Source: Rhodothermales bacterium (GTDB lineage: Bacteria; Bacteroidota; Rhodothermia; Rhodothermales; JABDKH01). Taken from it: DNA of 64,000 nt. The stretch spans positions 5,142 through 69,141 of the forward strand of contig JABDKO010000227.1 in NCBI GenBank assembly GCA_013002165.1, written 5' to 3'. Shown one piece after another: positions 1,097-18,574 of this stretch. The position numbers and the translations under genes were made by a program. Within the stretch, counting starts at the first letter, position 1; each line of letters opens with the position of its first letter. A model generated the notes under the pieces. The model was given only the letters and a program-made list of their open reading frames with translations. It ran no database searches and was not told the origin of the DNA.

Positions 1097-1103
1097 TGCC
1101 AGG

Positions 1104-2543: not shown

Positions 2544-3499
2544 TGGATCGTTTTAGTGAACCGATCAACTTGATATTTGTCGCAAGCATAGGTCGCAGTG
2601 GCTCAACGCTGCTCGAGTCTATGCTTGGAGCGCACTCCGAGATTGAGACAACCGGAGAAGTGCAGATCTGGCCGCACGAAATAATCCAGGGTGGAGTATT
2701 GCCGGTCGGGTCAGGGTTGATGATAGATGAATGCCCTTTCTGGATTGAGATGAAAAAACGTCTTGATCCGCTGGCACAACCGTTTCCGCAAATTCACCAC
2801 TTTCGTGAAAAACATTACGCGGGACGGACCCTGCGACTCGATCGGATCGGGGACCTCCAGAATCGACCTCTTCCTCCGGAAACGCACGCACTGATGATGC
2901 AGTATGCCCGAAACAACTACGAGTTGTTCGCCGCTTTTGCTAATGTAGTTGCAGATACGTCCGGAAAACGGCCCTCATGGTTGGTTGATGCATCAAAAGA
3001 TGCATACCGGTTGATTTGGCTTCTCCGATCTGGCTTATTCAATATCAAAGTCATACAACTGGTCAAGTCGCCGAGGGGTTTTGTTTATTCGGTGACGAAG
3101 CAGTTTCTTGACAAGTCCGTTCCAAATCATACTGCTAAACGACTCTACTTCGGCGCGAGGCAGTCACTGGCCTGGAGTATCCAGAACGAGTTGTTTCATA
3201 AGGTTGCCGAGAACTATCTCGACGAATCCACTTATTCGCTTATCAAGTACGAAACGCTTGCGGCTGATCCGTACAATACATTTAAACAGGTTTGTAATCT
3301 TGTGGGCGTTGATTACGAAAAGGAGGCTGTCGATTCGTTCCGGGATGGCAGTCCTTATTCTATGGCCGGTAATCCGATGAGACACCGATCCGGGGGCATA
3401 GTACTCGACGAAAAGTGGAAGGCATTGCTACCGAACTCCAGCAAACAGGTGGCACAACTGGTCACGTCTTTTAACAGACGGCGATTCGGTTACGAATAG
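2540..3499 (+). CDS. Sulfotransferase family protein
   Basis: It has an N-terminal PAPS-binding loop (IFVASIGRSGSTLLESML) and a later KSPRGFVYS region typical of the 3'-phosphate-binding segment. Confidence 0.8.
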   Translation: MMDRFSEPINLIFVASIGRSGSTLLESMLGAHSEIETTGEVQIWPHEIIQGGVLPVGSGLMIDECPFWIEMKKRLDPLAQPFPQIHHFREKHYAGRTLRLDRIGDLQNRPLPPETHALMMQYARNNYELFAAFANVVADTSGKRPSWLVDASKDAYRLIWLLRSGLFNIKVIQLVKSPRGFVYSVTKQFLDKSVPNHTAKRLYFGARQSLAWSIQNELFHKVAENYLDESTYSLIKYETLAADPYNTFKQVCNLVGVDYEKEAVDSFRDGSPYSMAGNPMRHRSGGIVLDEKWKALLPNSSKQVAQLVTSFNRRRFGYE

Positions 3500-3546
3500 G
3501 CGAACAGCTCGCCCTGAATGATTTTGATTTTCTCACGACGCGAACT

Positions 3547-5451
3547 ATGTGTGGCATAATCGGACAAGTCGGATACGACGGATTGCCTGATACGGAGGGA
3601 TTCGAGGCAGCTCGCGACCTGATGACTCACCGCGGTCCAGACGACGCTGGGATCGACCGGATAGGACCGGCATGTTTTGCATTCAGACGCCTGTCCATTA
3701 TTGACCTGTCTGCCGACGGGCATCAGCCTATGATGTCAACGGACGGCTCCGTCATGCTGCTCTTCAATGGCGAGATCTACAATTACGTAGAGCTGCGCCA
3801 ACGGTTGGTAGCCAGGCGGCAATTCAGATCTCATACAGATTCCGAAGTGATCCTCAACGGATACCTCGAATGGGGATGGGAGAAAATGCTCAGCCTGATT
3901 AATGGAATGTTTGGGATCGCCATCTGGGACAACAATACGGGCATGTTCTATGCGGCACGGGATCGCGTAGGAAAGAAGCCGTTCTTTTTTCGGCGCACGG
4001 CAGACGGACTCGCGTTTTCGTCAACCCTGAATGCGGTCGTTGCTCTGTCGCCTGATAAGCCCGAAGTCGATGCCTCAGCGCTCGACGCATACCTTGTCTA
4101 TCAGGCTGTCCCGTCGCCGGAAACGATTTTCAAGGGATATGATCAGTTGGCTCCAGCGCATCAGATAACATTCGACTGGAACAACAACTCGTTTGAGACC
4201 TCACGCTACTGGGATGTTGATTATTCGAACAAGATAGTCCGTTCGGAAAAGCAAATTCTCGACGACATGGATACGTTGATACGGACCGCGGTCCGGGAGC
4301 GCCTGATGAGTGACGTTCCGCTGGGTGCGTTTCTTTCCGGTGGAGTTGATTCGAGTCTTGTTGTATCGCTCATGGCGCAGGAGGACACCTCGCCGGTGGA
4401 AGCTGTGATCATGGGATTTGAGGACCCGGCCTTTGACGAGCGGCCCTATGCCAGGCAGGTTGCAGAGAAGTGGGGAGTCAGGCTGCATGAACATGTCCTC
4501 GAACCAAACGCAATCGAGGATCTTCCACAAATAGTCTGGCACTATGGTCAGCCGGTCGCTGATGTTTCAATTGTGCCGACATACTATGTTGCGCAAGCGG
4601 CGCGGGAGCACGTAACAGTCGTCCTGAACGGCGACGGTGGAGATGAAGTGTTTGGAGGGTATGCTCGGCCGGTTGTCGCACGGGCAGCCCAGAATTATAG
4701 AAGAGTTTTTCCGGCTGTAGCCAGGCGGGCAATTGCACAAACCTTTAAAGGCGTTAAGAGCGGTCCACTCAAGAAGCTAGCGATGCTTGCCGCGGCCGGT
4801 GGTGGAAGTGCTGAAGAGTCGTTCGTCTATGATCGTGCATTCAGACCGTTCCGGGACTCGGGATACTCTGATCAGCTCATTGCTCAGCTGAACGGCAACC
4901 CCGATCGTTTCTACCGCGATGTCTGGAGATCCGCCGCAGCAACGGATGATACTGATCGAGCGCTCTATGGCGACCTGACGACGTATTTGCCGGATCAGCT
5001 GCTCGCCAAAATGGATGTCTCGACGATGGCACATTCTCTGGAAGCAAGGGCCCCGTTGCTGGACATGAGATTGATTGAGTATGCTGCTACAATTCCGACG
5101 AAGCAGCGTATCAAGCAGTATCGAACTAAGCACTTGCTCAAGAAGCTTGCTGAACGGTACGTTCCTCGCGAAGTGTTGTATCGTCGCAAGAAAGGATTTG
5201 TGATGCCTGCTGCTGACTGGCTTCGTGGTGAACTTAGTCCATTCTTGAAAGCAACTGTTGGATCAAGCCCGTTTCTCGACCGCGGTTGGATCGATCCGGA
5301 TTTTACCCGAATGATGATCGATGAGCACCTGTCCGCGAAGACAAACTGGGGCGAGCAGCTGTGGACTCTTTTTGTTCTGGAGTTGTGGGCGCGCATGATG
5401 ATCGACGGCACTCTGGGGCCCGCAGACAGTCTGGAGGGATTGCTCCAGTGA
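3547..5451 (+). CDS. asnB: Asparagine synthase (glutamine-hydrolysing)-type amidotransferase
   Basis: It starts MCGIIG (Cys2 Ntn glutaminase nucleophile) and has the SGGVDSS PP-loop. At 634 aa it is embedded in a glycan operon, as are polysaccharide-associated AsnB homologs. Confidence 0.9.
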   Translation: MCGIIGQVGYDGLPDTEGFEAARDLMTHRGPDDAGIDRIGPACFAFRRLSIIDLSADGHQPMMSTDGSVMLLFNGEIYNYVELRQRLVARRQFRSHTDSEVILNGYLEWGWEKMLSLINGMFGIAIWDNNTGMFYAARDRVGKKPFFFRRTADGLAFSSTLNAVVALSPDKPEVDASALDAYLVYQAVPSPETIFKGYDQLAPAHQITFDWNNNSFETSRYWDVDYSNKIVRSEKQILDDMDTLIRTAVRERLMSDVPLGAFLSGGVDSSLVVSLMAQEDTSPVEAVIMGFEDPAFDERPYARQVAEKWGVRLHEHVLEPNAIEDLPQIVWHYGQPVADVSIVPTYYVAQAAREHVTVVLNGDGGDEVFGGYARPVVARAAQNYRRVFPAVARRAIAQTFKGVKSGPLKKLAMLAAAGGGSAEESFVYDRAFRPFRDSGYSDQLIAQLNGNPDRFYRDVWRSAAATDDTDRALYGDLTTYLPDQLLAKMDVSTMAHSLEARAPLLDMRLIEYAATIPTKQRIKQYRTKHLLKKLAERYVPREVLYRRKKGFVMPAADWLRGELSPFLKATVGSSPFLDRGWIDPDFTRMMIDEHLSAKTNWGEQLWTLFVLELWARMMIDGTLGPADSLEGLLQ

Positions 5452-6608
5452 ACGAGCCCGACTTGTTGAACATATACCAGACCGGGATGAGCTGGTTGCC
5501 CGAACAGCCGGGTAATGGCCTTGATCGCGTCTATCATGCACTCTTTGAGAACTTGCCACACGCAAACGTTCAGGCTTACGGCTCGGTAGCCGGGTCCCGG
5601 GCGGTAGCGGAGCAGTCAGGGGGTATGATTGTCGCCTTTGACAGCGATAAAGCCTCGCTTGCAACTCGACTGATGAAGCAGCGATTGCTGGTTCGCGCAG
5701 AACTCAAGAAACGGAACTACGATCTCATCGCTTCGCACTTCGCGCTGTACACTTACCCGATACTCGGGCTAATCAAACCGTTTCCGCTTGTAGTGCATTT
5801 TCACGGGCCATGGGCAGATGAGAGTCGAGTCGAGGGCGAGGGAAACAAGGCATACAATTTCAAGAAGTACATTGAGCGCCGGGTATATCGACAGGCGGAC
5901 ATGTTCATTGTTTTGTCAACAGCATTTCGTGATGTGCTCATAGAACACTTTGGAGTTCCCGCGAAAAAAATACGCATAGTACCCGGCGGTGCAGATCTAG
6001 ACCGTTTTGACGTCGGTGGGGATCAGCTGGCTGCCCGCAATCGTCTTGGCTGGGAGAGTGACAAGACAATAATTGTGTCAGTACGCCGTCTCGCCAGGCG
6101 GATGGGTTTGGAGCACTTGATCGATTCCGTGAGTACGCTGTCCGCGCAGTTCCCGGATCTACGACTTAAGATTGCCGGCAAGGGTCCAATCCAGGACGAA
6201 CTGCAGCAACGAATAATTGACCGTAACGCCGGCGATGTGATCGAACTGCTGGGATACGTTCCGGAGGAATTACTTCCGTCGATCTATTCAGCAGCTGACC
6301 TGTCGGTTGTCCCGACGGTCAGTCTGGAAGGTTTCGGCTTGATTACGGTCGAATCACTGGCATCTGGCACTCCATGTCTCGTGACTCCGGTCGGAGGGTT
6401 ACCCGAAGTGGTCCGAGACCTGTCAGCAGACCTTATCACCAGTGACACAACAACAGAATCATTGACAGATTCCCTGGCACGGATCCTCTCCAGAGAGATC
6501 TCCCTCCCTGACTCTCAAATGTGTATCGCTTTCGCGCGTGAACACTACGACTGGAAAGCCGTTGCCCGCAAAACTCGAAAGGTTTATGATGAGGTCCTGT
6601 CACAATGA
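5448..6608 (+). CDS. Glycosyltransferase family 4
   Basis: In-frame GTG 5448 overlaps the asnB stop (GTGA). The track start at 5361 would overlap asnB by 91 nt. It carries a GT4 C-terminal signature (VPTVSLEGFGLITVESLASGTPCLVTPVGGLPEVV). Confidence 0.85.
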   Translation: MNEPDLLNIYQTGMSWLPEQPGNGLDRVYHALFENLPHANVQAYGSVAGSRAVAEQSGGMIVAFDSDKASLATRLMKQRLLVRAELKKRNYDLIASHFALYTYPILGLIKPFPLVVHFHGPWADESRVEGEGNKAYNFKKYIERRVYRQADMFIVLSTAFRDVLIEHFGVPAKKIRIVPGGADLDRFDVGGDQLAARNRLGWESDKTIIVSVRRLARRMGLEHLIDSVSTLSAQFPDLRLKIAGKGPIQDELQQRIIDRNAGDVIELLGYVPEELLPSIYSAADLSVVPTVSLEGFGLITVESLASGTPCLVTPVGGLPEVVRDLSADLITSDTTTESLTDSLARILSREISLPDSQMCIAFAREHYDWKAVARKTRKVYDEVLSQ

Positions 6609-7750
6609 AGCGGGTCCTTTTCGTTGATCAGTCGCAGGTGCTCGGTGGTGCAGAGTTATCATTGATTGATCTGAGCAAGCAGTTTCCAGGATGTGCTGTG
6701 GCGGTCTTCAGCCGTGGTGAGTTTTCGGACAGACTGGAGGAGCTACAGATCAAAATGGTCGATCTCGATGTTGCAAAGGGCCTGAAGGAAGTGAAACGGT
6801 CCGGCGGCAGAATCACCGAGGTTGCCGCAATACCTGCGCTTTTCAGTGCATCTGTCAAACTGTCCCGGGCCGCTAAAGACTTCGATGTGATATATGCGAA
6901 TACCCAGAAGGCAATGCTGGTCGCCGGGATAGCGGGTAAACTATCAGGCAAGCCAGTGATATGGCATCTTCGTGATCTCTTGACGACGGATCACTTCAGC
7001 AATAAACTCATCCGGATATCCGTGTCTGCTGCCAACCATCTTGTTTTAAAGGTGATCGCAAACTCGCATGCAACGGCCGCGAGCTTCATCGATGCAGGTG
7101 GTGACCCGACCAGAGTGAGTGTCATCCACAATGGTGTTGACTCAAGTGCATTCACGGACTTGAGTACTGACGAGTCGACCAGAATACGGAACGACCTTGG
7201 AATCGGGGATGCGCCTGTGGCTGGCATCTTCAGTAGAATTGCCGCCTGGAAGGGCCAACATGTAATGTTGGAGGCTGCCTCCAAATTGCCCGACTGGCAC
7301 GTACTTGTCGTAGGCGACGCACTTTTTCAGAATGATCAAGAGTACAAGGACAGCCTCTTCAGAATCGTGCAGAAAAACGGTATGGACAATCGAGTGCACT
7401 TTCTCGGATTTCGAAATGATGTGCCCGCTCTCATGGCAGCTTGCGACGTAGTCGTCCACACCTCGACCTCACCTGAGCCATTTGGAAGAGTCATCGTTGA
7501 GGGGATGCTTGCACGGACACCTGTCATCGCAGCGCAGGGTGGTGGAGCGAGCGAGATCGTCAGGCACGGAGAGAACGGTTTTCTCTTTGATCCCGACAAT
7601 CCGATTGAACTACGGCAATTGTTATACCAGGTCGCCAGCGACGATACATCCGGTCTGTTAGAAAGCGCATTCGCTGAAGCTGTCGACTACTACTCCGTCG
7701 ACAGGCTTGTCCGCGATGTCCGGGACGTAATAACCTCACTGAATTCGTAA
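6605..7750 (+). CDS. Glycosyltransferase family 4
   Basis: It has an ATGA overlap with the upstream gene and the signature HTSTSPEPFGRVIVEGMLARTPVIAAQGGGASEIV. Confidence 0.9.
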   Translation: MKRVLFVDQSQVLGGAELSLIDLSKQFPGCAVAVFSRGEFSDRLEELQIKMVDLDVAKGLKEVKRSGGRITEVAAIPALFSASVKLSRAAKDFDVIYANTQKAMLVAGIAGKLSGKPVIWHLRDLLTTDHFSNKLIRISVSAANHLVLKVIANSHATAASFIDAGGDPTRVSVIHNGVDSSAFTDLSTDESTRIRNDLGIGDAPVAGIFSRIAAWKGQHVMLEAASKLPDWHVLVVGDALFQNDQEYKDSLFRIVQKNGMDNRVHFLGFRNDVPALMAACDVVVHTSTSPEPFGRVIVEGMLARTPVIAAQGGGASEIVRHGENGFLFDPDNPIELRQLLYQVASDDTSGLLESAFAEAVDYYSVDRLVRDVRDVITSLNS

Positions 7751-8454
7751 TGGCGATAAAAACATGGCTGCTTCGTAAGAAGTTCGACGTACGTTCTGCG
7801 ATAGCAAGGGAGTCCTGGCTCTTCATTCCTCACAATCTCATTGTATGGTGGACCCAGTACAAGGTGAGGAACCATATCGACACTTCGGAATGTCGCGTCG
7901 ATGGGAAAACGGAGTTTGTGCTTGACGGCTTTCAGGGTTCGGGTAACAGCTTCGCAACAGTCACCTTCAAGAACACCCAGGACCATAAGGTTCGTCTCGC
8001 TCATCATCTTCATTCGCCTGCACAGATCATCAAGGCAGTGCAGGCCGGACTTCCGGTGCTGGTTACCATCCGCGAACCGGGTGGAGGAGTCGTATCGTTG
8101 ACCAGTCGATGGACATACGTTACGCTTGAGCAGGGATTGAAAGGTTACATACAGTTCTACGGCAAGCTGATCCCGTTCAGAGATCAGTTCGTTGTCAGTA
8201 CATTCGAGGACACGATCCACTCCTTTGACGACGTTATTCGCCGCGTCAACGACAGGTTTGAAACCGATTTTCAGATTCTGGATTACAGTTCCGGTCTGAC
8301 GAAACCCAGGGCGACTTCCGAAACGGCTTCCTGGGAGACCGAGCGGAATAAGATCAAGGATCAGAAACAGGAGGAACTGAAAGATCCCCGGTATGCCGAT
8401 CTTCTTGCTGAAGCAAGAGGCATTTATTCGCAACTAACAGGCGAAACGGTATAA
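7750..8454 (+). CDS. Hypothetical protein (possibly sulfotransferase/P-loop-like), last gene of the glycan operon
   Basis: Its start overlaps the upstream stop by 1 nt (TAATG). It has a glycine-rich loop (GFQGSGNSFATV). A 247-aa antisense ORF also exists, but that one is Cys/Arg-rich and has no operon logic. Confidence 0.55.
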   Translation: MAIKTWLLRKKFDVRSAIARESWLFIPHNLIVWWTQYKVRNHIDTSECRVDGKTEFVLDGFQGSGNSFATVTFKNTQDHKVRLAHHLHSPAQIIKAVQAGLPVLVTIREPGGGVVSLTSRWTYVTLEQGLKGYIQFYGKLIPFRDQFVVSTFEDTIHSFDDVIRRVNDRFETDFQILDYSSGLTKPRATSETASWETERNKIKDQKQEELKDPRYADLLAEARGIYSQLTGETV

Positions 8455-8525
8455 CCTTTGCCACTGGTATCGTAAAACACGATGTGCCAATTATGACCAG
8501 CCAGGGCATCATGCCTGAAATTTGA

Positions 8526-10652
8526 GTGTCAACCATAGACTACAGAATAAACATAGGATTGCTGGTTGCCGGAGTCTTGCTCTCGGCGCTTGCTTTTTCA
8601 GGCTGGTTCTCCGCTGGCAGCGGATTTGACCCGGTCGATAAGCCACAAATTATTCTGCCTGTCGAGGTTCTGGGTTCGACCGGTCTAACACGAGTCGTCG
8701 AGGTGGTCGTGGACGAAGCCGCCGACATTGATCGACTATACCTGCAAGTCCATTCCCCCGGCTACAAATATGGAGCGGGGGACAAGGTTAGTGTGCAGGT
8801 CAACAGCTCACCATGGATCGACATATCCAACAAGACTGTGACCTGCTATTATCCAGAGTCACACTACGAATGCGTTGGCGGAGCATTCGCAACTGTCCGA
8901 TTTACAATTCCGGCGAAGGATGTCTCACGGGGACTGAATACGGTGCGATTTCGGTTTAACGGAACCGACGGGATCACCTCGGGATTCCGCGTGCTTGATT
9001 TCAATTTCCTTCGGTCCGATGGCTCACCGGTGCTTCCTCCCGAGATGTTTGCATACGAAGACCCTGCTGGTTGGCAACCACCATCGAACAGAGAGGAAGA
9101 CATTGCTGCCGGTCGACGACTGTGGCATGAAGCCGTTCTTGCCGACAATCCATTGAACGAAAACCATACTATTCGTGCCGCGTGTTCTGATTGTCATGCG
9201 ACGTCTGGAATGGACTTGAAGTATTTCGGCTATTCGAACGAGTCTATCATAGCACGCAGTGTTTTTCATGCCTTGTCCGAGGAAGAGGGAGAGCAGATTG
9301 CGAGCTACATTCGAACGCTTCCCGGTAAATCGTACGGCACGCCGTGGGACCCTCCGTATCAACCGGGACCCGGGATCGATTCACGGCCGGCGAGTGCCTG
9401 GGCTGCCGGGGCTGGACTTGAGGCCGTTCTCGAGCACGATTCTGATGCAATACCGTACATGTTTCCCAACGGCATTCGATGGCAAGAGATAGCAGCCGAC
9501 AGTACGATCAATATCCGTGAGATCCCGATTGCAATTCAATTGCCTGATTGGAATGAGTGGCTTCCGCGGGTTCATCCAGTCGATGCGTGGGGAGATGCCT
9601 TCGCCCGATCTGCGACTGCCACCGGGTACGAGCAGACCGTCCAGCCACTAATTGATGGAAATGCCAGCACACAGCAGGCGCTGCGATCGCTCGAGCGCTG
9701 GAACAGGAGTTTTCGAAGAGATCGGTCAGACGGACTTAACGAGGATGCATTTGGTGGATACGATTCGGATGGGGTGGTTGCTGATTATACTCTCGGCTTG
9801 CATCAGTGGCAGGCCGTTAAAACGTTCGAAGTAATGGTCGGCGGGTCATATCAGGATAAGGCCTACGAAGTCTACGGCGATGATGCGGAGCCGCTATCGT
9901 GGTTCGGCAACTCTCGTTCACTTTTTGACGTCGGCCCCCATATTTCCGGTCCGGTCCAGGTAAGTCCATACCCGCACGGATCGCCGCTCCAGAATATTTT
10001 CATGACCACGGCATGGTACGAACTTCAACTCATAGTTAATTCCGGCAACCGCCATGGATTGTCGATTCGCCCGATGGACTGGAAGTATCATTACGGGCAT
10101 ATCGCGGATATTTCAAAGTGGTCAGGCATCGATGAACCCGTCCGGTATCTCAAATCGTACGTCAAGAACATGCAGGAGGCCACAAACAGTCGATGCGGTC
10201 CCGGCTCCGACTGCGGCTTTTATTTCAGGCACCTTACGCCGGCAAGGCTCGTGGTTTCCCAATCGGAGGTTGCACAGAAAGGTGCGGGCCGATCAGCTCG
10301 TGGACGGCAGCGTGATGCAGGCGGTTCCGACAAGAATCTTTTCGACACCCTTCCGGTCGATGTCAAGACCCAATTGATTGAAGCAGTCCTTCGCGTACAC
10401 GTTAAGGAGCTGTTGAGGTATCCGACCTCGGCCTGGCCCCGAGGTGATGATCGTCAGGCACTGCCTGGTCAGGAAACTATTCCGACTCTCCAATCCGGCA
10501 GAAAACAATTCGACATGACGTCTTATGCAGATCATTACTACCGGTCAATACCAATTTTCAAAAATATTGGGGTCTCTCCAACTTTAATTGACTCGTTATC
10601 TGGCTGGGGTCAGACCATGTGGCCAGAAGCGGACTGGCAGTTCAAAAATTAG
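8526..10652 (+). CDS. Exported or membrane-anchored protein of unknown function with a single CxxCH motif (paralog A)
   Basis: It has a GTG start and an N-terminal hydrophobic anchor (INIGLLVAGVLLSALAF). It aligns by eye along its full length with the N-terminal ~690 aa of the next gene. Confidence 0.75.
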   Translation: MSTIDYRINIGLLVAGVLLSALAFSGWFSAGSGFDPVDKPQIILPVEVLGSTGLTRVVEVVVDEAADIDRLYLQVHSPGYKYGAGDKVSVQVNSSPWIDISNKTVTCYYPESHYECVGGAFATVRFTIPAKDVSRGLNTVRFRFNGTDGITSGFRVLDFNFLRSDGSPVLPPEMFAYEDPAGWQPPSNREEDIAAGRRLWHEAVLADNPLNENHTIRAACSDCHATSGMDLKYFGYSNESIIARSVFHALSEEEGEQIASYIRTLPGKSYGTPWDPPYQPGPGIDSRPASAWAAGAGLEAVLEHDSDAIPYMFPNGIRWQEIAADSTINIREIPIAIQLPDWNEWLPRVHPVDAWGDAFARSATATGYEQTVQPLIDGNASTQQALRSLERWNRSFRRDRSDGLNEDAFGGYDSDGVVADYTLGLHQWQAVKTFEVMVGGSYQDKAYEVYGDDAEPLSWFGNSRSLFDVGPHISGPVQVSPYPHGSPLQNIFMTTAWYELQLIVNSGNRHGLSIRPMDWKYHYGHIADISKWSGIDEPVRYLKSYVKNMQEATNSRCGPGSDCGFYFRHLTPARLVVSQSEVAQKGAGRSARGRQRDAGGSDKNLFDTLPVDVKTQLIEAVLRVHVKELLRYPTSAWPRGDDRQALPGQETIPTLQSGRKQFDMTSYADHYYRSIPIFKNIGVSPTLIDSLSGWGQTMWPEADWQFKN
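9183..9197 (+). other. CSDCH heme-c attachment-type motif in paralog A
   Basis: The codons tgt tct gat tgt cat are in frame with the 8526 CDS. Confidence 0.6.
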
Positions 10653-11034
10653 CATTGCAGTCTCAATTCCAATTCCCTCAAGTTACCCTCGTTGTCGCCT
10701 CACTTCTCCTTCGGGTGTACACCGGAAAATCTTGACAGGATCTACACTGGATGACCGTTGTCCGTTCTTTTACCGACATCCAATTTACCTTAAGTTGTTA
10801 TTTCTAAAAGCCGATAATGCTGTCGAATCGTGTTAACAGTTAGCCCATTGTTAACTCGTCCCACAATAAGATTCGGCAGAAAGATTAACGTCATCTAGCC
10901 ACTGTAAGCGACCCAGAGACTGCCACCACAGTCTGATTGAACACCGGTTAGCATGAAGACTGGTTGATGCGGGAGACCACCCGTTATTGGCCGGGACATC
11001 TGTATGCTGGTTGAAAGCCGCGCTTACATACGAG

Positions 11035-14000
11035 ATGATTATAAAAACTACTGTATCCCACTTGTACAGATTAGCAGTTGCCGCGATCTTCGCCGGCACT
11101 TTCCTTTTGGGGCCATCCGCTCAGGCCCAGATCAAAGTTCCAATCGAGGTCATCGGACCCGACGGCTATACACAGTCGGTGAACGTAAACGTCACTTCGG
11201 CATCCGAAGTCAGCCGGCTCTGGTTGCAGGTTCACTCCCCTGGATACAAGTACGGGGAGGGAAACAAGATGAGCGTCCGGATAAACGGCGGTGCCTGGAC
11301 CGACGTTAACAACCAGATCGCTATATGCGAAGCTCCTGAATCATCGTACGAATGTATCGGTGGAGCTTTTGCTACTGTCCGATTCACAATTCCTGCGACG
11401 GGAGTCATCTCGGGGAATAACACGATCGATTTTCGTTTCAATGGGACCGAAGGGTTGACAATTGGCTACCGTGTTCTGGCGTTCAATTTTGTACGCAGTG
11501 ACAACAGCAAGATTCTGCCCGAGTCTACCTTCTATTATGACGATCCTTCCCTGTGGACCGCTCCACTGACAAGCCAGAGTGACATCGATCGCGGAAAACA
11601 ACTGTGGGAGTCAGAACCGCTTCTCGACTTCGGGAATGTATCGATTACTGCGACATGCGCAGACTGCCATGCAAAAGACGGTCGGGATTTGCAGTACTTC
11701 GCGTACTCGAATCATTCGATCATCGAACGAAGCAAGTTCCATGGAATGTCTCAGACCGAGGGCGAGCAGGTGGCAAGCTATATCCGGAATCTTGCCGTTG
11801 CCAGTCATGGAACACCGTGGGATCCGCCATATCAGCCGGGACCCGGACTTGACGATAAGCCAGCTGAGGAATGGGCCGCAGGTGCCGGGCTCGAATGGGT
11901 TCTTGAAGAAGATGAACAGATGATCCCGCACATGTTTCCCGACGGATTTTCTTCCGATCAGATCTTGACGTCAAACGATTTGAACATGAGGGAGATTCCA
12001 ATCGGTATTCAACTTCCTGATTGGAACGAATGGCTTCCACGTGTCCATCCCAAAGATGCCTGGGGCTCTGTGTTCACAACATCGTCCGTCTACACAATCT
12101 ATGCTACCAGCATCCCGAGCACACTGGCCGGCGGAGTACAGAATGCCATAAACAGTGGAAGCATCCTTTCAGTCATGGATAGTTGGGGCGCCGCAATTCG
12201 TGATGGGCGTGGATCGTCCACGTTTAACCCCGACTTTTTCGGCGGATGGGGCTCCGATGGCACCGTTGCCGACTACCAGCTCGGTTATCAGCAGTGGCAG
12301 GCCGTGAAGACGTGGGAGATCATGAACACCTACGAAGGGCTGCAGGAAGCGGCTCCTACGCTGTATCCGGGAGTCGGAGAAGCCAGATCATGGTTCGGCA
12401 ATACGCGATCCGTTTTCGACGTGGCTCCTCACATTTCCGGTCCGCCGCAAACGGGTTCATACCCACACGGCGATCCTCTGCAGAATTTCTTCATGTCGTC
12501 GGCATGGTACGAGCTCCAGCTCATTCTCAACTCGGGCAACCGCAACGGTGTCTCCATCCGGCCGCATGACTGGAAATACCATTACGGTCATATCGGTGAT
12601 ATCATGAAAGAGTCTGGCCGCCGCGAGCCGATGCGCCATCTTAAAGCATATGCTAAAAATATGCAGATGGCTGACAATCGCTATGGCGTTGGCACCGCGA
12701 ATGGCTTCTATCTCCGACACGTAACTCCGAGTCGAATGGTCGGTACCCCCGGCGCAAAGAATCCATTTGAAGACCTTGATTCGGCAACACGGAGAGCCGT
12801 AACTGAGCCGATACTTCGGGCGTTAGTGGTCAAACTGCTTGAGCACGACATCAGTGAATGGTCGCGTCAGACAGGACTGTACGGAATAGAACCGGCTTCG
12901 ACAGTTCCGACTCCCGGTAACGGATTCGATACGTCTACGTACATCGACCACTTCTACCACGCAATACCCGTATTCAATTCAATTGGTGTCGCTCCGACGC
13001 TGTTGGATTCCCTCGCTACCTGGGCAGAATCGGCATGGCCATTGGGTGACTGGCATTCGTTGTATGATTACAATCAGTCAAACAATCCGCCTTCAATTAC
13101 GCTTACGAGTCCTGCAAATGGAACGACCTATACAGAACCGGCAACCATCGCAATGTCCGCGAGTGCATCCGACATTGACGGTTCAGTAGTAAGCGTCAAG
13201 TTCTTCCAGAACGGAATTCAGATTCATGAAGATAATTCAGCTCCGTATTCCTATACGTGGTCTGGTGTTGTTCCAGGAACGTACACAATCTCGGCCCTCG
13301 CCGAGGACAATTCGAGTGCGACCGCTGTCTCCGGATCTGTTAGCGTGACCGTTAACAGTGACAACCCCGGTCCGCCACCTTCAAACAATGACCCGACAGT
13401 TGCAATTACCAGCCCTCTCGCAGGAGCGAGCTACGATGAAGGAGACAACATTGTTATAGAGGCGAACGCTTCGGATTCTGACGGATCTGTGTCCGTCGTC
13501 CAATTCTATCAGAACAACATTCTGCTCGGTCAGGATACGTCTGCTCCGTACTCGTTTACATGGTCGAATGTGCAGGAAGGCGCGTATGCGCTGTCCGCCG
13601 TAGCAACCGATAATGACGGCGCATCCACGACATCAAACTCGATAGTCGTCACGGCAGGTGATAATCCGGGTCCGCCGCCGACAATCACTGAGACACAGAC
13701 TATTGATCTGGTTGTTGGTTGGAATCAAGTCTCCACCTACGTTGCACCGCAGGTAAGCGAGATTGCTTCGATCTTCCAGCCGATTGTGTCCGATATTTTC
13801 CTTGTCAAGGATGTTGTGGGCAACTCATACCACCCGGCACTCGGAATTAATACGATCGAAAACTGGAATTCACTTGAGTCCTATCAAGTGTATGCGAATG
13901 CTGCTTCGACATTCGATGTAGAGGGAGCCGTTCTCGATCCTTCCACGACTGCAGTCCCGATCGTCGAAGGTTGGAACTACATTCCATACCTGCGCAAGAC

Positions 14001-14841
14001 GAATATGTCGATTGATGAGGCGTTGGTCAATGTTACGTCTGATGTCGTCATGGTAAAAGACTACGCTGGCCGTGTTTATTTCCCTGATTTCCAGATTAAT
14101 GAAATCGGAGATTTGGAGCCGGGCCAGGGTTACAAGCTGTTCGTAAATTCCGGTGGGACACTGACCTATCCAGCGAATGCCGCCGGTGTGGCGAGTCGAT
14201 CCAAGGAAGAGTCTGGTCAGGTTCTCGTCGGCATAGCGAGCTCGTCGCTTGTAGTCGTTGATGCCTCAAAACTTCCGGGTGCCCGCAGAGTTTTCGCGGT
14301 TCTTGAGAACGGAACCCGGATTGGTGAGGCGTGGATCTCATCGGTTACAAATCAGGCCTATGTCAAGGTAAGAGGTGACGATGACGTGACCATCGATCTC
14401 GTCGAGGGAGCACTCAACGGAGATCGAATCATTCTTGAAGCGGAGTTTGGTACGGGCGATGTCAAGCGCGTATCGGCCTCCAATATTCAAGATATCCTTG
14501 GCTCAAATACAAGAAGTGTTCTATCCCTGTCCTACAAGACTGATTCGGCGTACCTGGTTGAACTGGGCGAGATTCCAGGAGACTATGTCCTCGAACAGAA
14601 CTATCCGAATCCCTTCAACCCGTCTACAACGATTCGGTATGAGTTACCGGACGATGAGTTCGTCAAGATTGAAGTGTTCAACATGCTTGGTGAGCGTGTC
14701 GCTACACTCGTGAACGAGGAAGTCAGTGCCGGTTCGCATACTGCTACCTTCGAGGCAGACAATATATCAAGCGGCCTTTATGTCTATCGCTTGATCGCTG
14801 GAAGCTATATCGAAGACAGAGCAATGATGTTCTTGAAATAG
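11035..14841 (+). CDS. Secreted multidomain protein: CxxCH module (paralog B), two Ig-like domains, further beta-rich domains and a T9SS C-terminal sorting domain
   Basis: ATG 11035 gives the signal peptide MIIKTTVSHLYRLAVAAIFAGTFLLGPSAQAQ. The track start is TTG 10987. The C-terminus reads NYPNPFNPSTTIRYELP... Confidence 0.85.
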   Translation: MIIKTTVSHLYRLAVAAIFAGTFLLGPSAQAQIKVPIEVIGPDGYTQSVNVNVTSASEVSRLWLQVHSPGYKYGEGNKMSVRINGGAWTDVNNQIAICEAPESSYECIGGAFATVRFTIPATGVISGNNTIDFRFNGTEGLTIGYRVLAFNFVRSDNSKILPESTFYYDDPSLWTAPLTSQSDIDRGKQLWESEPLLDFGNVSITATCADCHAKDGRDLQYFAYSNHSIIERSKFHGMSQTEGEQVASYIRNLAVASHGTPWDPPYQPGPGLDDKPAEEWAAGAGLEWVLEEDEQMIPHMFPDGFSSDQILTSNDLNMREIPIGIQLPDWNEWLPRVHPKDAWGSVFTTSSVYTIYATSIPSTLAGGVQNAINSGSILSVMDSWGAAIRDGRGSSTFNPDFFGGWGSDGTVADYQLGYQQWQAVKTWEIMNTYEGLQEAAPTLYPGVGEARSWFGNTRSVFDVAPHISGPPQTGSYPHGDPLQNFFMSSAWYELQLILNSGNRNGVSIRPHDWKYHYGHIGDIMKESGRREPMRHLKAYAKNMQMADNRYGVGTANGFYLRHVTPSRMVGTPGAKNPFEDLDSATRRAVTEPILRALVVKLLEHDISEWSRQTGLYGIEPASTVPTPGNGFDTSTYIDHFYHAIPVFNSIGVAPTLLDSLATWAESAWPLGDWHSLYDYNQSNNPPSITLTSPANGTTYTEPATIAMSASASDIDGSVVSVKFFQNGIQIHEDNSAPYSYTWSGVVPGTYTISALAEDNSSATAVSGSVSVTVNSDNPGPPPSNNDPTVAITSPLAGASYDEGDNIVIEANASDSDGSVSVVQFYQNNILLGQDTSAPYSFTWSNVQEGAYALSAVATDNDGASTTSNSIVVTAGDNPGPPPTITETQTIDLVVGWNQVSTYVAPQVSEIASIFQPIVSDIFLVKDVVGNSYHPALGINTIENWNSLESYQVYANAASTFDVEGAVLDPSTTAVPIVEGWNYIPYLRKTNMSIDEALVNVTSDVVMVKDYAGRVYFPDFQINEIGDLEPGQGYKLFVNSGGTLTYPANAAGVASRSKEESGQVLVGIASSSLVVVDASKLPGARRVFAVLENGTRIGEAWISSVTNQAYVKVRGDDDVTIDLVEGALNGDRIILEAEFGTGDVKRVSASNIQDILGSNTRSVLSLSYKTDSAYLVELGEIPGDYVLEQNYPNPFNPSTTIRYELPDDEFVKIEVFNMLGERVATLVNEEVSAGSHTATFEADNISSGLYVYRLIAGSYIEDRAMMFLK
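11656..11670 (+). other. CADCH heme-c attachment-type motif in paralog B
   Basis: The codons tgc gca gac tgc cat are in frame, at the position homologous to CSDCH of paralog A. Confidence 0.6.
13081..13680 (+). repeat. Two tandem Ig-like (bacterial Ig / chitobiase-type) domain repeats, each followed by a DNPGPPP linker
   Basis: Repeat 1 is NNPPSITLTSPANGTTY...SAPYSYTWSGVVPGTYTISALAEDN. Repeat 2 is NNDPTVAITSPLAGASY...SAPYSFTWSNVQEGAYALSAVATDN. Confidence 0.75.
14584..14838 (+). other. T9SS (Por) C-terminal sorting domain
   Basis: YVLEQNYPNPFNPSTTIRYELPDDEFVKIEVFNMLGERVATLV...GLYVYRLIAGSYIEDRAMMFLK. Confidence 0.85.
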
Positions 14842-14855
14842 AGCATCGAGTCTTG

Positions 14856-14896
14856 ACAGTCCGGCGCCGGAAACGGCAAGCGGTGAGCCGGACTGT
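14856..14896 (+). terminator. Possible terminator hairpin after paralog B
   Basis: A 10-bp stem ACAGTCCGGC/GCCGGACTGT has a 21-nt loop and starts 15 nt after the stop. It is followed only by TTTCC, a weak T tract. Confidence 0.3.
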
Positions 14897-14959
14897 TTCC
14901 GCCACGGAAGCATCCCACTACAGGCGGTTTCCAAACTGCCCGTCTAACCCACCCAGAAA

Positions 14960-17900
14960 ATGGAAAGAGTACTCGGCCTAGTGGCACTTCTGTGCCTTGC
15001 TACCGGTGTAACTGGTACGGTGCAAGCCCAAACGCATTTCACCGGATGCGTTTCATCAACCGGTGAAAATGCAACGGTGCTTGTTAACGATACGATCGGG
15101 CCATCGATTGATGGTGTTGCACTGGCTAGCGGAGATGAGATTGCCGTCTTTACGACGGAAGGACTATGTGTCGGTGTTGAGGTCTGGACGGGTATCAACA
15201 TCGCACTTACCGTTTGGGGAGACAATTCCCTGACCACAGAAAAAGACGGGTTGTCTGCCAGTGAGCAGATGAATTTTGTGGTCTGGGATGCGTCCTCTCA
15301 AACGGAATTTGGAAACAGTTACGGATCCGTTGATGTGGCATACAGTTCAGTTTCGCCATATAACGGCACCGGTCTCTATGACTCGGATGCCATATACCAG
15401 TTGACTCTGCTAGCGGCCAGCACACCGCGACATCCGGTGGCCGCAGCTTCGGCAACCCCGACTTCGGGAAGCACACCGCTACTCGTCACGTTCGATGCAA
15501 GCGCGTCTTCTGATGAAGATGGATCGATTATTTCATACGCATGGGACTTCGGCGATGGCGGATCCGGGTCGGGCGTTGGCACAACCAATACCTTCATGTC
15601 TGCCGGCACCTATCCGGTTGTCTTGACCGTGACCGACGATGATGCCTACTCCTCCACAGACACGGTAACGATCGTCGTTTCGCCTGCTCCTACAAACGTG
15701 CCGCCCACAGCTTCCTTTTCCCTGACTCCTGATTCCGGCCAGGCACCTCTTACTGTCACCGTCGATGCATCAGGGAGTTCTGACTCCGATGGATCCATCG
15801 TCTCGTACACATGGACATTTGGTGATGGAAGCTCTGCGACGGGTGTCAGCGCATCCCACGAGTATAGCCAGGCAGGTACATTCAGCGTCGTGCTGACTGT
15901 TACTGACGATGATGGAGCAACGGCGTCAGAAACCCGAACAGTAAGCGTTCTGGAGCCGAACAATCAGCCGCCAGCGGCTGCCTTCTCTGCCTCCACGTCT
16001 ACGGGAGTTATTCCACTTCTCGTTACATTCGATGCCTCATCCAGTACTGATCCCGACGGGTCAATTGCTACGTACACCTGGAATTTTGGAGATGGAAGTG
16101 CGGCTACCGGTGTCTCGACATCAAAGACATATACTGTCGCAGGAAGCTACATTGTCACTCTTACCGTCACCGACGACGATGGCGCATCTTCATTAACGCA
16201 GCAGACTATACTTGCTTCGGCAGGCACCTCGAATTTGCCACCGGTAGCAGCATTCACGCTGACACCTAGTGTAGGTACGGCACCTGTCACCGTCGCAACC
16301 GACGGTAGTGCCTCAACGGATTCAGACGGAACGATTTCTTCGTACGCATGGGACTATGGTGACGGCGCTACTGGAACCGGCGTTACTGATTCGCACACCT
16401 ATTCAACGTCGGGCACGTACACAGTCACACTTACCGTCAGCGACAACAATGGTGCAACTGGAAGTTCGTCACAGACGGTAACAGTCTCGTCTCCACCCAC
16501 CGCCGGACCTCTGGTTATGCACCTGACATTCGATGAGTCGTCGGGACAAAACGCAACTGATGTTTCCACGAACGGCAATGATGGTACGTTGCAGGGCGGG
16601 GCGGAGTTTGCGACAGCTGGCATACTATCAGGAGCAGTTCTGCTGAATGGTGGCGACGCTTATGTCGATGTGGCTGACAATGCAGTGCTTAATCAGCAGA
16701 TTGTGAGTAAACGAACGATTTCCATTTGGTTCAGGGCGGATGACGTCTCTGTATCGTCTCGGAAACAGGTCATCTGGGAAGAGGGAGGTCAGCAGAAAGG
16801 CCTTTCGATCTATCTTTTCAATGGATCCCTGTACGTGGGTGGCTGGAACAAATCCACTTCCGAAAGTGGTTGGGACGGCACGTTCCTTTCGACAAGTGCC
16901 GTTCAGTCAAATACGTGGAATCATGTTGCACTTGTGCTCAATGGTGGGCCCACTGTCAGCCCGGGCGCATTGCTGGGATATCTCAATGGGGCTTCCATCG
17001 GAAACGGTACCGCTTCCCAGGTCTGGTCTCACAATGATGACATTGGCATCGGGCGCGTAGATGGCGATACCTGGTTTCATGACGCTACCAATAAGAGCGG
17101 ACAAACACACGGATTCTCTGGGTATATCGATGATGTTCGCGTCTATAACCAGGTACTGACGCAGCCTGAGATCAACGATCTGGCGAATGGCGGCGGGGCA
17201 TCACAGAATCTGCCTCCGAACGCCGTGATTGATGTCGATCAGCAGAGCGGACCTGCGCCACTCCAGGTAAATTTTTCGGCAACGCGTTCTTCCGATAACG
17301 ATGGCAGCATTCAAAGTTACTCGTGGACTCTGGGTAATGGTGAATTCGGAACGGGCCCGACAGTGGCGGCATCGTATACGACGGCCGGGACGTACTCCGT
17401 GACTCTCACAGTGATTGACAACGATGGTGCAACATCCTCCGCGAATGCGACGATTACAGTCGAGCAAACCGTTGGAAATGCACCCCCTCGAGCAGAGATA
17501 GTCGAAACTCTGGGTCGGCGAAACTCCATGTCGATTTCGCTGAACGGAGAGTCATCTTCCGATCCCGACGGGTCGATTGTTCACTACGACTGGGACTTTG
17601 GTGATGGGGCTACAAGCACGGGGCCGTCCGCAACGCATGAGTACTCATCACCCGGATCGTTTCAGGTAATTCTTACCGTGACGGATGACGTGGGACTACA
17701 GGGATCATCAACTTTCTGGGTTTCCGTCTACGATCTGCTTCCAGAAGGAACCGGAAGCAGCCTCGTGGGAGCCGGACAGGGTCAGGACCCGGGCTTTGCC
17801 AGCTACGACGGAGAGACACTGACGCTGCGATCGTCGGCCGCAGTTCCTTCAGCATCTTCCGATGTGTTTCGATTTGTTCATGAGACGGTATCTGGTGACG

Positions 17901-18574
17901 CAACGATCACAGTAAGAATTGAAGAGATCAGTTCCGGTCAGAGCTCTGCACGCATCGGCGTGATGCTTCGCAGTCAGCTCACGCCGGCTGCAACCATGGC
18001 ACATTTGACCATCGATGGCACGGGGCAGGCACATCTCGAGAGTCGCCCCGTAGCAGGTGCTCCGGCGACCTTCTCATCGGCTGGTAGCTTCGGGATTCCC
18101 GGGTGGATCCGGATTAGCCGTCAGGGCAATACATTCAGAACCTTTGCTTCGGTAGATGGTGCAGTATGGACGCCGACAGGGCAGGTCGAGATAGGAATGC
18201 CGGAAACTGTATTTATGGGTGTGACCGCGTCATCCCAATCGGGGTCATCGTTTGACGCCAGTCTTGACAACGTCGCATTCGAGTCGACCGATGAAGCCCT
18301 GCCGGCTGGATACCTTCTGTCTGAAGCCTACCCGAACCCGTTTAATCCGGCCTCGCAGATAACCCTGGTGGTAGACCAGGCGCAGGAGATAAGCGTTTCC
18401 GTGTACAGTGTTACCGGTGTTTTAGTCCAGCAATTGTTCATCGGTGAAGTCGCCGCAAACCAGCTGTACGAATACAGATTTGCTGCGACGGATGGACTTG
18501 CCAGTGGCACTTATTTCTTGCGGGTTTACGGAGAATCCTTTGCGGCAACGAGAGCCGTGGTTTTACTCAAATAA
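14960..18574 (+). CDS. Secreted 1204-aa adhesin-like protein: six PKD domains, a LamG/ConA-like domain, a second ConA-like domain and a T9SS sorting domain
   Basis: It has the signal peptide MERVLGLVALLCLATGVTGTVQAQ, PKD signatures (FDASxSxDxDGSIxSYxWxFGDG...YxVxLTVTDDDG) and a C-terminal YPNPFNPASQITLVV. Confidence 0.9.
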   Translation: MERVLGLVALLCLATGVTGTVQAQTHFTGCVSSTGENATVLVNDTIGPSIDGVALASGDEIAVFTTEGLCVGVEVWTGINIALTVWGDNSLTTEKDGLSASEQMNFVVWDASSQTEFGNSYGSVDVAYSSVSPYNGTGLYDSDAIYQLTLLAASTPRHPVAAASATPTSGSTPLLVTFDASASSDEDGSIISYAWDFGDGGSGSGVGTTNTFMSAGTYPVVLTVTDDDAYSSTDTVTIVVSPAPTNVPPTASFSLTPDSGQAPLTVTVDASGSSDSDGSIVSYTWTFGDGSSATGVSASHEYSQAGTFSVVLTVTDDDGATASETRTVSVLEPNNQPPAAAFSASTSTGVIPLLVTFDASSSTDPDGSIATYTWNFGDGSAATGVSTSKTYTVAGSYIVTLTVTDDDGASSLTQQTILASAGTSNLPPVAAFTLTPSVGTAPVTVATDGSASTDSDGTISSYAWDYGDGATGTGVTDSHTYSTSGTYTVTLTVSDNNGATGSSSQTVTVSSPPTAGPLVMHLTFDESSGQNATDVSTNGNDGTLQGGAEFATAGILSGAVLLNGGDAYVDVADNAVLNQQIVSKRTISIWFRADDVSVSSRKQVIWEEGGQQKGLSIYLFNGSLYVGGWNKSTSESGWDGTFLSTSAVQSNTWNHVALVLNGGPTVSPGALLGYLNGASIGNGTASQVWSHNDDIGIGRVDGDTWFHDATNKSGQTHGFSGYIDDVRVYNQVLTQPEINDLANGGGASQNLPPNAVIDVDQQSGPAPLQVNFSATRSSDNDGSIQSYSWTLGNGEFGTGPTVAASYTTAGTYSVTLTVIDNDGATSSANATITVEQTVGNAPPRAEIVETLGRRNSMSISLNGESSSDPDGSIVHYDWDFGDGATSTGPSATHEYSSPGSFQVILTVTDDVGLQGSSTFWVSVYDLLPEGTGSSLVGAGQGQDPGFASYDGETLTLRSSAAVPSASSDVFRFVHETVSGDATITVRIEEISSGQSSARIGVMLRSQLTPAATMAHLTIDGTGQAHLESRPVAGAPATFSSAGSFGIPGWIRISRQGNTFRTFASVDGAVWTPTGQVEIGMPETVFMGVTASSQSGSSFDASLDNVAFESTDEALPAGYLLSEAYPNPFNPASQITLVVDQAQEISVSVYSVTGVLVQQLFIGEVAANQLYEYRFAATDGLASGTYFLRVYGESFAATRAVVLLK
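15434..16490 (+). repeat. Four tandem PKD domain repeats (protein-level repeats)
   Basis: Four roughly 88-aa units each contain the D-x-DG-S-I pattern, W-x-FGDG and LTVTDDDG-like motifs. Confidence 0.85.
16505..17195 (+). other. LamG / concanavalin-A-like lectin domain
   Basis: The region runs LVMHLTFDESSGQNATDVSTNGNDGTLQGGAEF...WNHVALVLNG...GYIDDVRVYNQVLTQPEINDL. Confidence 0.7.
17211..17730 (+). repeat. Two further PKD domain repeats
   Basis: Supporting segments are SSDNDGSIQSYSWTLGNGEFG...TLTVIDNDG and SSDPDGSIVHYDWDFGDGAT...ILTVTDDVG. Confidence 0.8.
18313..18571 (+). other. T9SS C-terminal sorting domain
   Basis: LLSEAYPNPFNPASQITLVVDQAQEISVSVYSVTGVLVQQL...GTYFLRVYGESFAATRAVVLLK. Confidence 0.85.

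Follow-up and report, generated by a model that had tools for sequence, protein, structure and literature searches.

Two tandem genes in a Rhodothermales bacterium encode paralogous proteins that share a core of about 650 residues with a single heme c attachment motif. The genes lie in a 64,000-nucleotide stretch of contig JABDKO010000227.1 (assembly GCA_013002165.1, positions 5,142 to 69,141 of the forward strand), which we refer to as the window, and they encode proteins of 708 residues (paralog 1, p1) and 1268 residues (paralog 2, p2); a 1204-residue protein with a tail for the type IX secretion system (T9SS; p3) is encoded downstream. Comparison of sequences across the family gives good support to the view that these are exported proteins with one heme c each, built as a conserved three-domain unit and strongly associated with carbohydrates. 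The unit is predicted to combine a beta-sandwich resembling carbohydrate-binding modules (CBMs), a divergent mono-heme cytochrome c domain and a novel all-alpha domain, and our preferred reading, to which we give slightly less than an even chance, is that it constitutes a carbohydrate-directed heme protein.

Two tandem genes carry copies of one module

The two genes and the parts of their products outside the heme site are as follows.

8526..10652, + strand: p1 gene (708 residues), GTG start; hydrophobic N-terminus followed by the bare module (open reading frame list and translation)
8526..8603, + strand: N-terminal hydrophobic segment of p1, residues 1-26; hydrophobic at residues 10-23, then ALA-FS (direct reading)
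11035..14841, + strand: p2 gene (1268 residues), ATG at 11035, in an open reading frame (ORF) that extends back to 10987
11035..11127, + strand: signal peptide of p2, residues 1-31, ending ...SAQA-QIK (direct sequence reading)
11128..13062, + strand: module copy of p2, residues 32-676 (BLASTP alignment)
13081..13659, + strand: two Big_7 immunoglobulin (Ig)-like domains of p2, residues about 683-875 (PF17957, E = 6e-34, two stretches)
13660..14601, + strand: 314-residue region of p2 between the Ig-like domains and the T9SS tail, with no Pfam match at E up to 0.1
14602..14838, + strand: T9SS type A C-terminal sorting domain of p2 (PF18962, TIGR04183)

BLASTP aligned residues 18-705 of p1 with residues 13-674 of p2 at 699 bits (E = 0), with 355 of 694 positions identical (51%). 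The paralogy along about 690 residues that had been proposed in a preliminary description of this stretch therefore stands, whereas the identity, put there at well over half, is about half overall; position 13080, given as the end of the pair, is the end of the shared module, and the p2 gene runs on to 14841.

The N-terminus of p1, earlier taken for a membrane anchor, could equally well be a cleavable Sec signal peptide or a signal anchor, and in the AlphaFold2 model it forms an isolated helix (residues 7-23) of low predicted local distance difference test score (pLDDT). The sorting domain of p2 exceeds the curated thresholds of both models (33.9 bits against a cut-off of 27 for PF18962, and 35.6 against 23 for TIGR04183) and occurs together with a signal peptide read from the sequence, the combination that defines T9SS type A cargo. 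These results agree with the Ig-like domains, sorting signal and surface display previously ascribed to p2. No T9SS machinery gene was seen within the window, and no search was made beyond it. Moreover, the cysteines outside CxxCH are always paired, in p1 as in p2, as expected for exported proteins.

The module of p2 retains nearly all family-conserved residues and p1 retains almost all of them, so neither copy looks degenerate. We considered p1 as a degenerate copy and rejected this, since it departs from the family consensus at only four positions that p2 keeps (G249A, W434F, L442Y and R457L, all at positions at least 85% conserved). W434F is common to p1 and its closest relatives of about 710 residues, which do not share R457L; the latter is otherwise seen only in a few members scattered over the family. 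These four deviations could mark sub-functionalisation of the short copy.

p1 is 100% identical to a "hypothetical protein" at NCBI from a Rhodothermales metagenome-assembled genome (MAG; P0001). In the closest MAG locus (L006), four genes follow one another as in the window: a 234-residue ORF, p1, p2 and p3. Orthologues in the window and in L006 are 63% (p1) and 75% (p2, over the full length) identical and paralogs 51-53%, which indicates that the duplication predates the split of both genomes and that both copies were kept. A promoter and terminator scan of 7600-19100 returned counts equal to the shuffled expectation and was uninformative.

Conservation in the module is highest at the heme site

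The residues of the heme site in the two proteins are listed below.

9183..9197, + strand: CSDCH heme c attachment motif of p1, residues 220-224 (C220, C223, proximal H224), 100% conserved
9255..9269, + strand: R244-S-V-F247-H248 (FHA) of p1, candidate sixth ligand or distal pocket (R-x-x-F-H; family alignment)
11656..11670, + strand: CADCH heme c motif of p2, residues 208-212 (C208, C211, H212; sequence)
11728..11742, + strand: R232-S-K-F-H236 (FHG) of p2, counterpart of R244..H248 (sequence)

p1 and p2 have a single CxxCH motif each, at 9183 and 11656 as initially described, and a second His 28 residues past the first Cys and 24 past the CxxCH His (residue 248 in p1 and 236 in p2), again as described. 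Both features hold across homologs, where their invariance had been named as a check. CxxCH was present in 245 of 246 retrieved family sequences, the exception being a fragment, and one member has two motifs. In the profile alignment (n=247), C220, C223 and H224 were 100% conserved among the 246 sequences that cover the site, and H248 was kept in 244 of 246, with Phe or Tyr in the two exceptions. R244 was 98% conserved, and R-x-x-[F/Y/H]-H was found in 241 of the 247 sequences scanned. An axial Met as sixth ligand was not evident: 194 of 245 members have no Met within 55 residues downstream of CxxCH, and none is conserved, as had been noted for the two paralogs. In total, 40 of the 59 positions conserved at 95% or above fall in residues 183-353, which comprise the heme domain and a Pro/Trp-rich segment. 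Because conservation peaks at the heme site and the heme is never lost, we infer that the heme is functional, not decorative.

It could be argued that CxxCH binds no heme and forms a metal site or a disulfide, the cytochrome reading being a motif coincidence. Cytochrome Pfam models indeed stayed below the gathering score, with PF00034 detected in 5 of 63 members (best E = 0.23) and PF13442 in 2 of 63 (E = 0.069, the best of all), and neither model matched p1 or p2; nor was any cytochrome among the top Foldseek matches listed. Alignment with hhalign to five classical cytochromes c paired only the CxxCH motif or the C-terminal helix, which does not prove homology. However, C-x-x-C-H is strictly invariant together with the second His, and the protein is extracytoplasmic. 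As in class I cytochromes, moreover, the motif lies between an N-terminal "GxxLW" helix and a C-terminal helix of the form "LSxxExxIAxYI". We consider the absence of heme very improbable.

The i, i+3, i+4 spacing of R-x-x-F-H is that of the distal Arg, Phe (or Trp) and His of plant and fungal peroxidases. The pattern would be equally compatible with a propionate-binding Arg and an iron-ligating His, and we treat it as a lead only.

The module is predicted to consist of a beta-sandwich, a cytochrome-like domain and an all-alpha domain

AlphaFold2 with the family alignment modeled p1 at a mean pLDDT of 89.8 and a predicted template-modeling (TM) score of 0.89. The predicted parts are the following.

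8649..9056, + strand: beta-sandwich, residues 42-177, CBM6/35-like and PL4 domain III-like (AlphaFold2 strands, pLDDT >95; Foldseek)
9078..9335, + strand: cytochrome c-like helical domain, residues 185-270 (AlphaFold2 helix order)
9336..9605, + strand: invariant Pro/Trp-rich segment, residues 271-360, PWDPPYQPGPG ... WAAGAG ... LPDWNEWLPRVHPVDAW (conservation, AlphaFold2)
9606..10649, + strand: all-alpha domain, residues 361-708 (AlphaFold2, family alignment)

In a Foldseek search against the PDB, the beta-sandwich paired with CBM6 and CBM35 structures and with GH115 and GH98 accessory domains (probability 0.93-0.99, E = 0.03-0.3) at 10-18% identity and a TM score on the target of 0.43-0.50; for CBM6/35 the probability was 0.98-0.99, with E = 0.06-0.3 and 15-18% identity. 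PF14683 (PL4 domain III, "CBM-like") weakly matched the N-terminal part of 16 of 63 members (best E = 3.6e-5), with E = 0.021 for the window proteins, below the gathering score. The likeness to CBM6/35 and PL4 domain III is one of fold, and the domain may bind sugars. Within this domain, C107 and C116 co-occur as a clade-specific Cys pair.

In the second domain, a helix (190-202) precedes CxxCH (220-224), which is followed by helices 229-233 and 238-247 and by a C-terminal "LSxxEGEQIASYIR" helix (252-264). In the model, this order of elements resembles that of class I cytochromes. The Pro/Trp-rich segment, which has the family form PWNPPYQPGPG, WAAGAG and LPDWNxWLPxVHPxD, is mostly coil yet has a pLDDT of 93-98. 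The all-alpha domain contains the invariant residues W428, K432, W459, W497, Y498, Q501, D518, Y521 and Q550. Foldseek found no analogue of residues 185-708 in the PDB (best probability 0.21; TM scores did not exceed 0.19 for the query and 0.27 for the target); no cytochrome was among the top 50 matches, and GH76 reached only 0.13. As modeled, everything after the beta-sandwich is a fold without a PDB analogue.

The module defines a large family in at least eight phyla

The preliminary description had recognised no named family for the module, and our searches bear this out. Pfam and NCBIfam gave no match for the shared core, including their models of the catalytic CAZy families (glycoside hydrolases, GH; polysaccharide lyases, PL; carbohydrate esterases, CE; auxiliary activities, AA), and a profile of 63 family members matched no PDB sequence at E up to 10. 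A single-sequence query returned 8k9e_B (E = 0.04) over a short stretch, which we judged spurious. Likewise, no match to an already characterised enzyme family was found, an outcome that had been named as one that would count against the proposal.

A profile search of 1.84 billion cluster representatives retrieved 1,472 clusters (at 50% identity) with an E-value of 1e-3 or lower, of which 938 remained at a cut-off of 1e-30, and a scan of one genome per GTDB species located 557 encoding loci. The loci listed belong to Rhodothermota, Bacteroidota (Hymenobacter, Aquimarina, Maribacter, Tunicatimonas and Lewinella), Acidobacteriota, Myxococcota, Chloroflexota, Deinococcota, Verrucomicrobiota, Armatimonadota and a few Proteobacteria; the family spans at least eight phyla. 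In every case the core aligns as one block over profile positions ~25-683.

The names given to members by PGAP and UniRef reflect accessory domains only (RICIN, PKD, T9SS, Ig-like), with an occasional "cytochrome c553". We found no characterisation of this family in the literature on c-type cytochromes that are CBM-linked, T9SS-exported or associated with polysaccharide utilization loci (PULs), and searches of full-text literature gave no report of a T9SS-exported c-type cytochrome.

Members have export-type N-termini and non-catalytic fusion partners

Of 235 members with an initial Met, 178 have an N-terminus that resembles a signal peptide or a lipobox. About one member in two extends beyond the bare module, and the stand-alone form of about 700 residues is the commonest. 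The partners in 40 long members were all non-catalytic: T9SS tails occurred in 13 of the 40, and the others were Big_7, PKD, Big_2, He_PIG, PA14, Ricin, Laminin_G_3, DUF4082, CBM6, malectin, CBM4_9 and CBM96. Further members carry CBM60, CBM35, GLEYA or dockerin domains, and a known catalytic domain was never found as a fusion partner among the members examined. A fixed core combined with varied CBMs is the usual signature of the catalytic module of a carbohydrate-active enzyme (CAZyme), although it is not proof.

The Ig, PKD, CBM and T9SS fusions and the CBM-type beta-sandwich would also suit a non-enzymatic glycan-binding or scaffold protein, such as an adhesin or exopolysaccharide anchor, at the surface or in the periplasm and with an incidental heme. 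This we regard as quite improbable, since about 60 near-invariant residues over 650, including charged residues and His, exceed what is usual for binding proteins, and since the stand-alone form is the commonest.

The module gene recurs in exopolysaccharide loci and beside carbohydrate-active enzymes

The genes that flank the two paralogs in the window are as follows.

74..7750, + strand: upstream genes of exopolysaccharide/O-antigen type: GT4, Wzy-like, sulfotransferase, AsnB-like, GT4, GT4 (Pfam)
7750..8454, + strand: 234-residue ORF directly upstream of p1; the ORF at this place in L006 is 75% identical
14960..18574, + strand: p3, T9SS protein of 1204 residues with an N-terminal domain of about 150 residues, six PKD domains, LamG and a T9SS tail

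The Rhodothermota loci share one design, to which the window is identical: a Wzy-like gene, several GT4 genes, a sulfotransferase gene, the 234-residue ORF, the module gene and a T9SS protein gene. In about 10 Rhodothermota loci the module gene terminates a GT4/Wzy exopolysaccharide locus at its 3' end, and it does so too in L088, whose dockerin-bearing homologue is 40% identical and has the same exopolysaccharide locus design. The 234-residue ORF has no Pfam match; it is present in four Rhodothermota loci, and a 241-residue ORF occupies the same place in L088. By eye, its "GFQGSGNSF" resembles the P-loop, or 3'-phosphoadenosine-5'-phosphosulfate (PAPS)-binding loop, of sulfotransferases.

The N-terminal domain of p3 (14960-15469; HFTxC...GDEIAVF...G.C.G..W) likewise has no Pfam match. 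Its homologues follow a heme-module gene in nine loci, eight of them in Rhodothermota (for example L072:13825-14892, L016:11369-12445 and L007:12605-13633), and it may be a functional partner of the heme module.

The members from Bacteroidota are found in arrays of T9SS-secreted enzymes with a matching CBM: arrays bearing CBM60 contain GH9, GH11, PL and beta-helix proteins, and those bearing Ricin domains contain PL, GH43 and GH-like proteins. One member stands beside a SusC/SusD pair, in divergent orientation. Together with the CBM fusions and the position at the end of exopolysaccharide loci, these neighbors substantiate the carbohydrate link that had been suggested from the glycan locus in the window.

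Outside Rhodothermota, the only recurring same-strand neighbors are right-handed beta-helix proteins (NosD-like or PL1-like, mostly T9SS-tailed), directly upstream of which members lie in seven loci, including one from Deinococcota (beta-helix proteins at, for example, L001:14713-16833, L087:13596-15653, L086:12923-16357, L002:12978-15119, L029:10681-12498 and L019:4321-7332). Some of the seven loci were added after the adjacency had been noticed, and it is a lead, not a statistic. Clustering of neighbors over 85 loci revealed no universally conserved neighbor. An S9/tricorn-like peptidase in 15 mostly acidobacterial loci varied in strand and distance and was set aside as lineage background.

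Polymer-trimming glycanases such as AlgL and BcsZ are encoded in exopolysaccharide operons, and the module gene at the operon end resembles them in position. The module might accordingly be their equivalent, a non-redox polysaccharide lyase or hydrolase with its active site in the all-alpha domain and a structural or regulatory heme. The conserved Tyr, Asp, Lys, Gln, Asn and Trp residues of the alpha domain, the weak likeness of the N-terminal domain to PL4 domain III and the repeated adjacency to lyase-like beta-helix proteins are all in keeping with such an activity. However, no similarity to a GH or PL family was found by sequence or by Foldseek, and the best-conserved positions gather around the heme and not in the alpha domain. 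Moreover, if the heme were merely structural, some of the roughly 1,500 lineages should have lost it, and none has. We judge a lyase or hydrolase distinctly unlikely.

The module differs from known heme proteins of polysaccharide degraders

PSCyt and PSD proteins are large exported proteins of unknown function that combine a minimal CxxCH domain with helical domains in aerobic polysaccharide degraders of the Planctomycetes-Verrucomicrobia-Chlamydiae (PVC) superphylum, and they are sometimes fused to CBM6, PA14 or Laminin_G_3 (10.1101/150078). The module resembles them in its export, its one minimal CxxCH domain, its big helical domains and its occasional CBM6, PA14 or LamG partners. However, the models of PSCyt1-3 and PSD1-5 (PF07635, PF07583, PF07587 and the related DUF1587/1592 families) and other DUF158x/159x models gave no match in the 63 members at E up to 5. 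In addition, the heme module was seen mainly in Rhodothermota, Bacteroidota, Acidobacteriota, Myxococcota, Chloroflexota and Deinococcota, its N-terminal beta-sandwich is obligatory, unlike in PSCyt/PSD, and His takes the sixth-ligand position that is held in PSCyt by the Met of the "MPP" motif. PSCyt/PSD is the nearest kind, itself functionally uncharacterised, and the sequence comparison does not support membership of the module in it.

A precedent for carbohydrate-targeted c-type hemes is the secreted Cbp2D of the polysaccharide degrader Cellvibrio japonicus, which has the architecture CBM2-X158-FN3-X183-DUF1587-X132 and whose X183 domain can reduce lytic polysaccharide monooxygenases (LPMOs) (PMC8981238). 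Cbp2D and the module are alike in being secreted, CBM-linked and equipped with single-CxxCH cytochrome domains. However, X183 is a classical His/Met class I cytochrome of about 90 residues with an exposed heme, whereas the heme of the module is embedded in a fixed unit of 650 residues with His, not Met, as candidate ligand. The family profile gave no match to the CjX183 sequence in the PDB set at E up to 10. X132 of Cbp2D occurs in Planctomycetes and Gammaproteobacteria. As with PSCyt/PSD, membership is not supported, because there is no match by hidden Markov model or PDB sequence, His replaces Met and the taxa differ.

The example of Cbp2D favors a pure electron-transfer cytochrome. Docked on a glycan or a partner protein, it would exchange electrons with another redox enzyme outside the cell (such as an LPMO or a different oxidase) or with an extracellular acceptor, and would perform no glycan chemistry itself. 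His at a sixth-ligand-like position and the lack of a conserved Met suggest the low-spin His/His heme that would suit this role. On the other hand, the cytochrome part never occurs on its own as a mobile domain but is always locked into the unit of about 650 residues as its most conserved part. No redox partner recurs in the neighborhood, and mono-heme proteins on either side of the outer membrane could not form a wire alone. Furthermore, a related CBM-cytochrome of Teredinibacter is reported, in work cited in PMC12055684, to be unable to reduce an LPMO. We hold the electron carrier to be unlikely.

Class I cytochromes (c551, c553 and c6, with PsbV as a His/His example) place CxxCH after an N-terminal helix and end in an amphipathic "LSxxE...Y" helix, and the candidate sixth ligand of the module sits, as theirs does, just before the C-terminal helix. 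The module differs from them in that the candidate second ligand is His and lies only 24 residues from the CxxCH His, whereas the Met of class I cytochromes lies 35-60 residues past CxxCH.

Other heme enzymes offer mechanistic analogies only. The rubber oxygenases RoxA and RoxB and the superfamily of di-heme cytochrome c peroxidase (CCP) and MauG comprise secreted c-type heme enzymes with an oxidative action on a polymer or a protein (PMC6311187). They have two CxxCH hemes and the CCP fold, compared with one heme in the module, and they serve as a conceptual model of polymer cleavage by heme c only; CCP, MauG and RoxA had no entry among the Pfam matches, the PDB sequence matches or the Foldseek matches listed. 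The fungal Hybrid B heme peroxidases are a precedent for fusion to carbohydrate-binding domains (PMC5571214). Non-animal heme peroxidases share with the module the R-x-x-F-H spacing on one helix face beside the heme. However, their heme b is non-covalent, their fold is different and without homology to the module, and the motif match comprises three residues.

A redox step on polysaccharides is the favored but tentative function

We propose the following course for the carbohydrate-directed heme protein. After Sec export, the periplasmic cytochrome c maturation system would attach one heme to C220/C223 (C208/C211 in p2), with H224 (H212) as the proximal ligand. The helix 238-247, with R244-x-x-F247-H248, would form the other heme face, where H248 could act as the sixth ligand of a low-spin His/His heme or as a distal base of the peroxidase type. 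The Pro/Trp-rich segment and the conserved Trp, Tyr, Asp, Lys and Gln of the alpha domain might provide a glycan-binding site beside the heme, at which the module would perform a redox step on the polysaccharide. Our preferred guess for the chemistry, an H2O2- or O2-dependent oxidation or oxidative cleavage, is speculative; we favor it because the heme is the conserved center, no other cofactor signature is evident and the listed carriers all belong to lineages that we take to be aerobic heterotrophs. p1 would work in the periplasm, where its substrate would be the sulfated exopolysaccharide that the products of the upstream GT4, Wzy and sulfotransferase genes synthesise; p2, once exported by T9SS, would work on the cell surface. 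The CBMs appended in other bacteria would direct the module to plant or algal glycans.

Several observations weigh against this proposal. Covalent heme attachment, glycan binding and catalysis are each inferred. The cytochrome c Pfam models stay under threshold, and the likeness of R-x-x-F-H to peroxidases is a three-residue pattern that was noticed post hoc. A His/His-type site would be more typical of electron-transfer than of catalytic hemes, and neither a second cofactor site nor a conserved redox partner was found. Additionally, fusions to CBM, Ig and T9SS domains occur also in adhesins and proteases, and in Acidobacteriota, Myxococcota and many other genomes the module gene has no conserved or carbohydrate-related neighbors.

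The preliminary description had suggested a surface-exposed mono-heme protein with an uncharacterised redox or carbohydrate-active function, and this interpretation is largely supported. A bolder version of our proposal, which we hold to be doubtful, is that the module is the catalytic unit of an unrecognised class of carbohydrate-active redox enzymes with a single c-type heme, a peroxidase-like distal Arg/Phe/His and H2O2 or O2 as oxidant. If true, such an enzyme would be to heme what the LPMOs are to copper, at work in the periplasm, at the cell surface through T9SS, in PULs and in exopolysaccharide operons of at least eight phyla, and such a class of heme c redox enzymes might also explain the enigmatic PSCyt-type proteins.

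Nearly all oxidative attack on polysaccharides by bacteria is currently attributed to copper LPMOs, together with some flavo- and quino-enzymes; such enzymes seem to be scarce in many aerobic degraders, among them Bacteroidota, Acidobacteriota and Rhodothermota. With about 1,500 clusters, an invariant heme c site, a fold that matches no solved structure and links to CBMs, T9SS, PULs and exopolysaccharide operons, the family is a concrete, clonable candidate for a missing redox activity. Even if it proves to be an electron carrier or a binder, defining the module would put a name to many annotations that now read "hypothetical" or "RICIN/PKD domain-containing". Its value is that of a well-defined candidate family for experimental work, not of a solved mechanism.

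Other features of the window

Downstream of p3, 18721-25970 (+ strand) looks like a complete lasso-peptide gene cluster with the following parts.

18721-19035, + strand: PqqD-like B1
19060-20004, + strand: HPr-kinase-like protein
19997-20464, + strand: transglutaminase-like B2 protease
20371-22443, + strand: Asn-synthase-like cyclase
22523-22681, + strand: candidate precursor of 52 residues (MSNNEKKAYEAPALTVYGNVEEITSSKTWHAASDWLGEIVDYMSPKDNDFSS)
22885-24732, + strand: ATP-binding cassette (ABC) exporter
24729-25970, + strand: PF14907 nucleotidyltransferase

Given the Thr at position -2 of the candidate precursor, its ring would be Ser1-Asp9; the Ser at its C-terminus is consistent with tailoring by the kinase.

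At 35191-38389 (- strand), a small GTPase of the Ras/Roc family (37784-38389) adjoins a histidine kinase and a sigma-54-dependent response regulator. A 623-residue ORF without a Pfam match (39015-40886, + strand) lies beside glycogen genes, which are GlgB-like (40883-42757), GlgX-like (42864-45014) and MalQ (45011-46597). The pair at 49582-51869 (+ strand), EgtB-like (FGE-sulfatase and DinB_2) and EgtD-like (Methyltransf_33), suggests ergothioneine biosynthesis. The stretch 57287-62187 (- strand) contains a family B DNA polymerase (57287-59617) and, after it, a T9SS-tailed protein with BNR/sortilin repeats (59623-62187).

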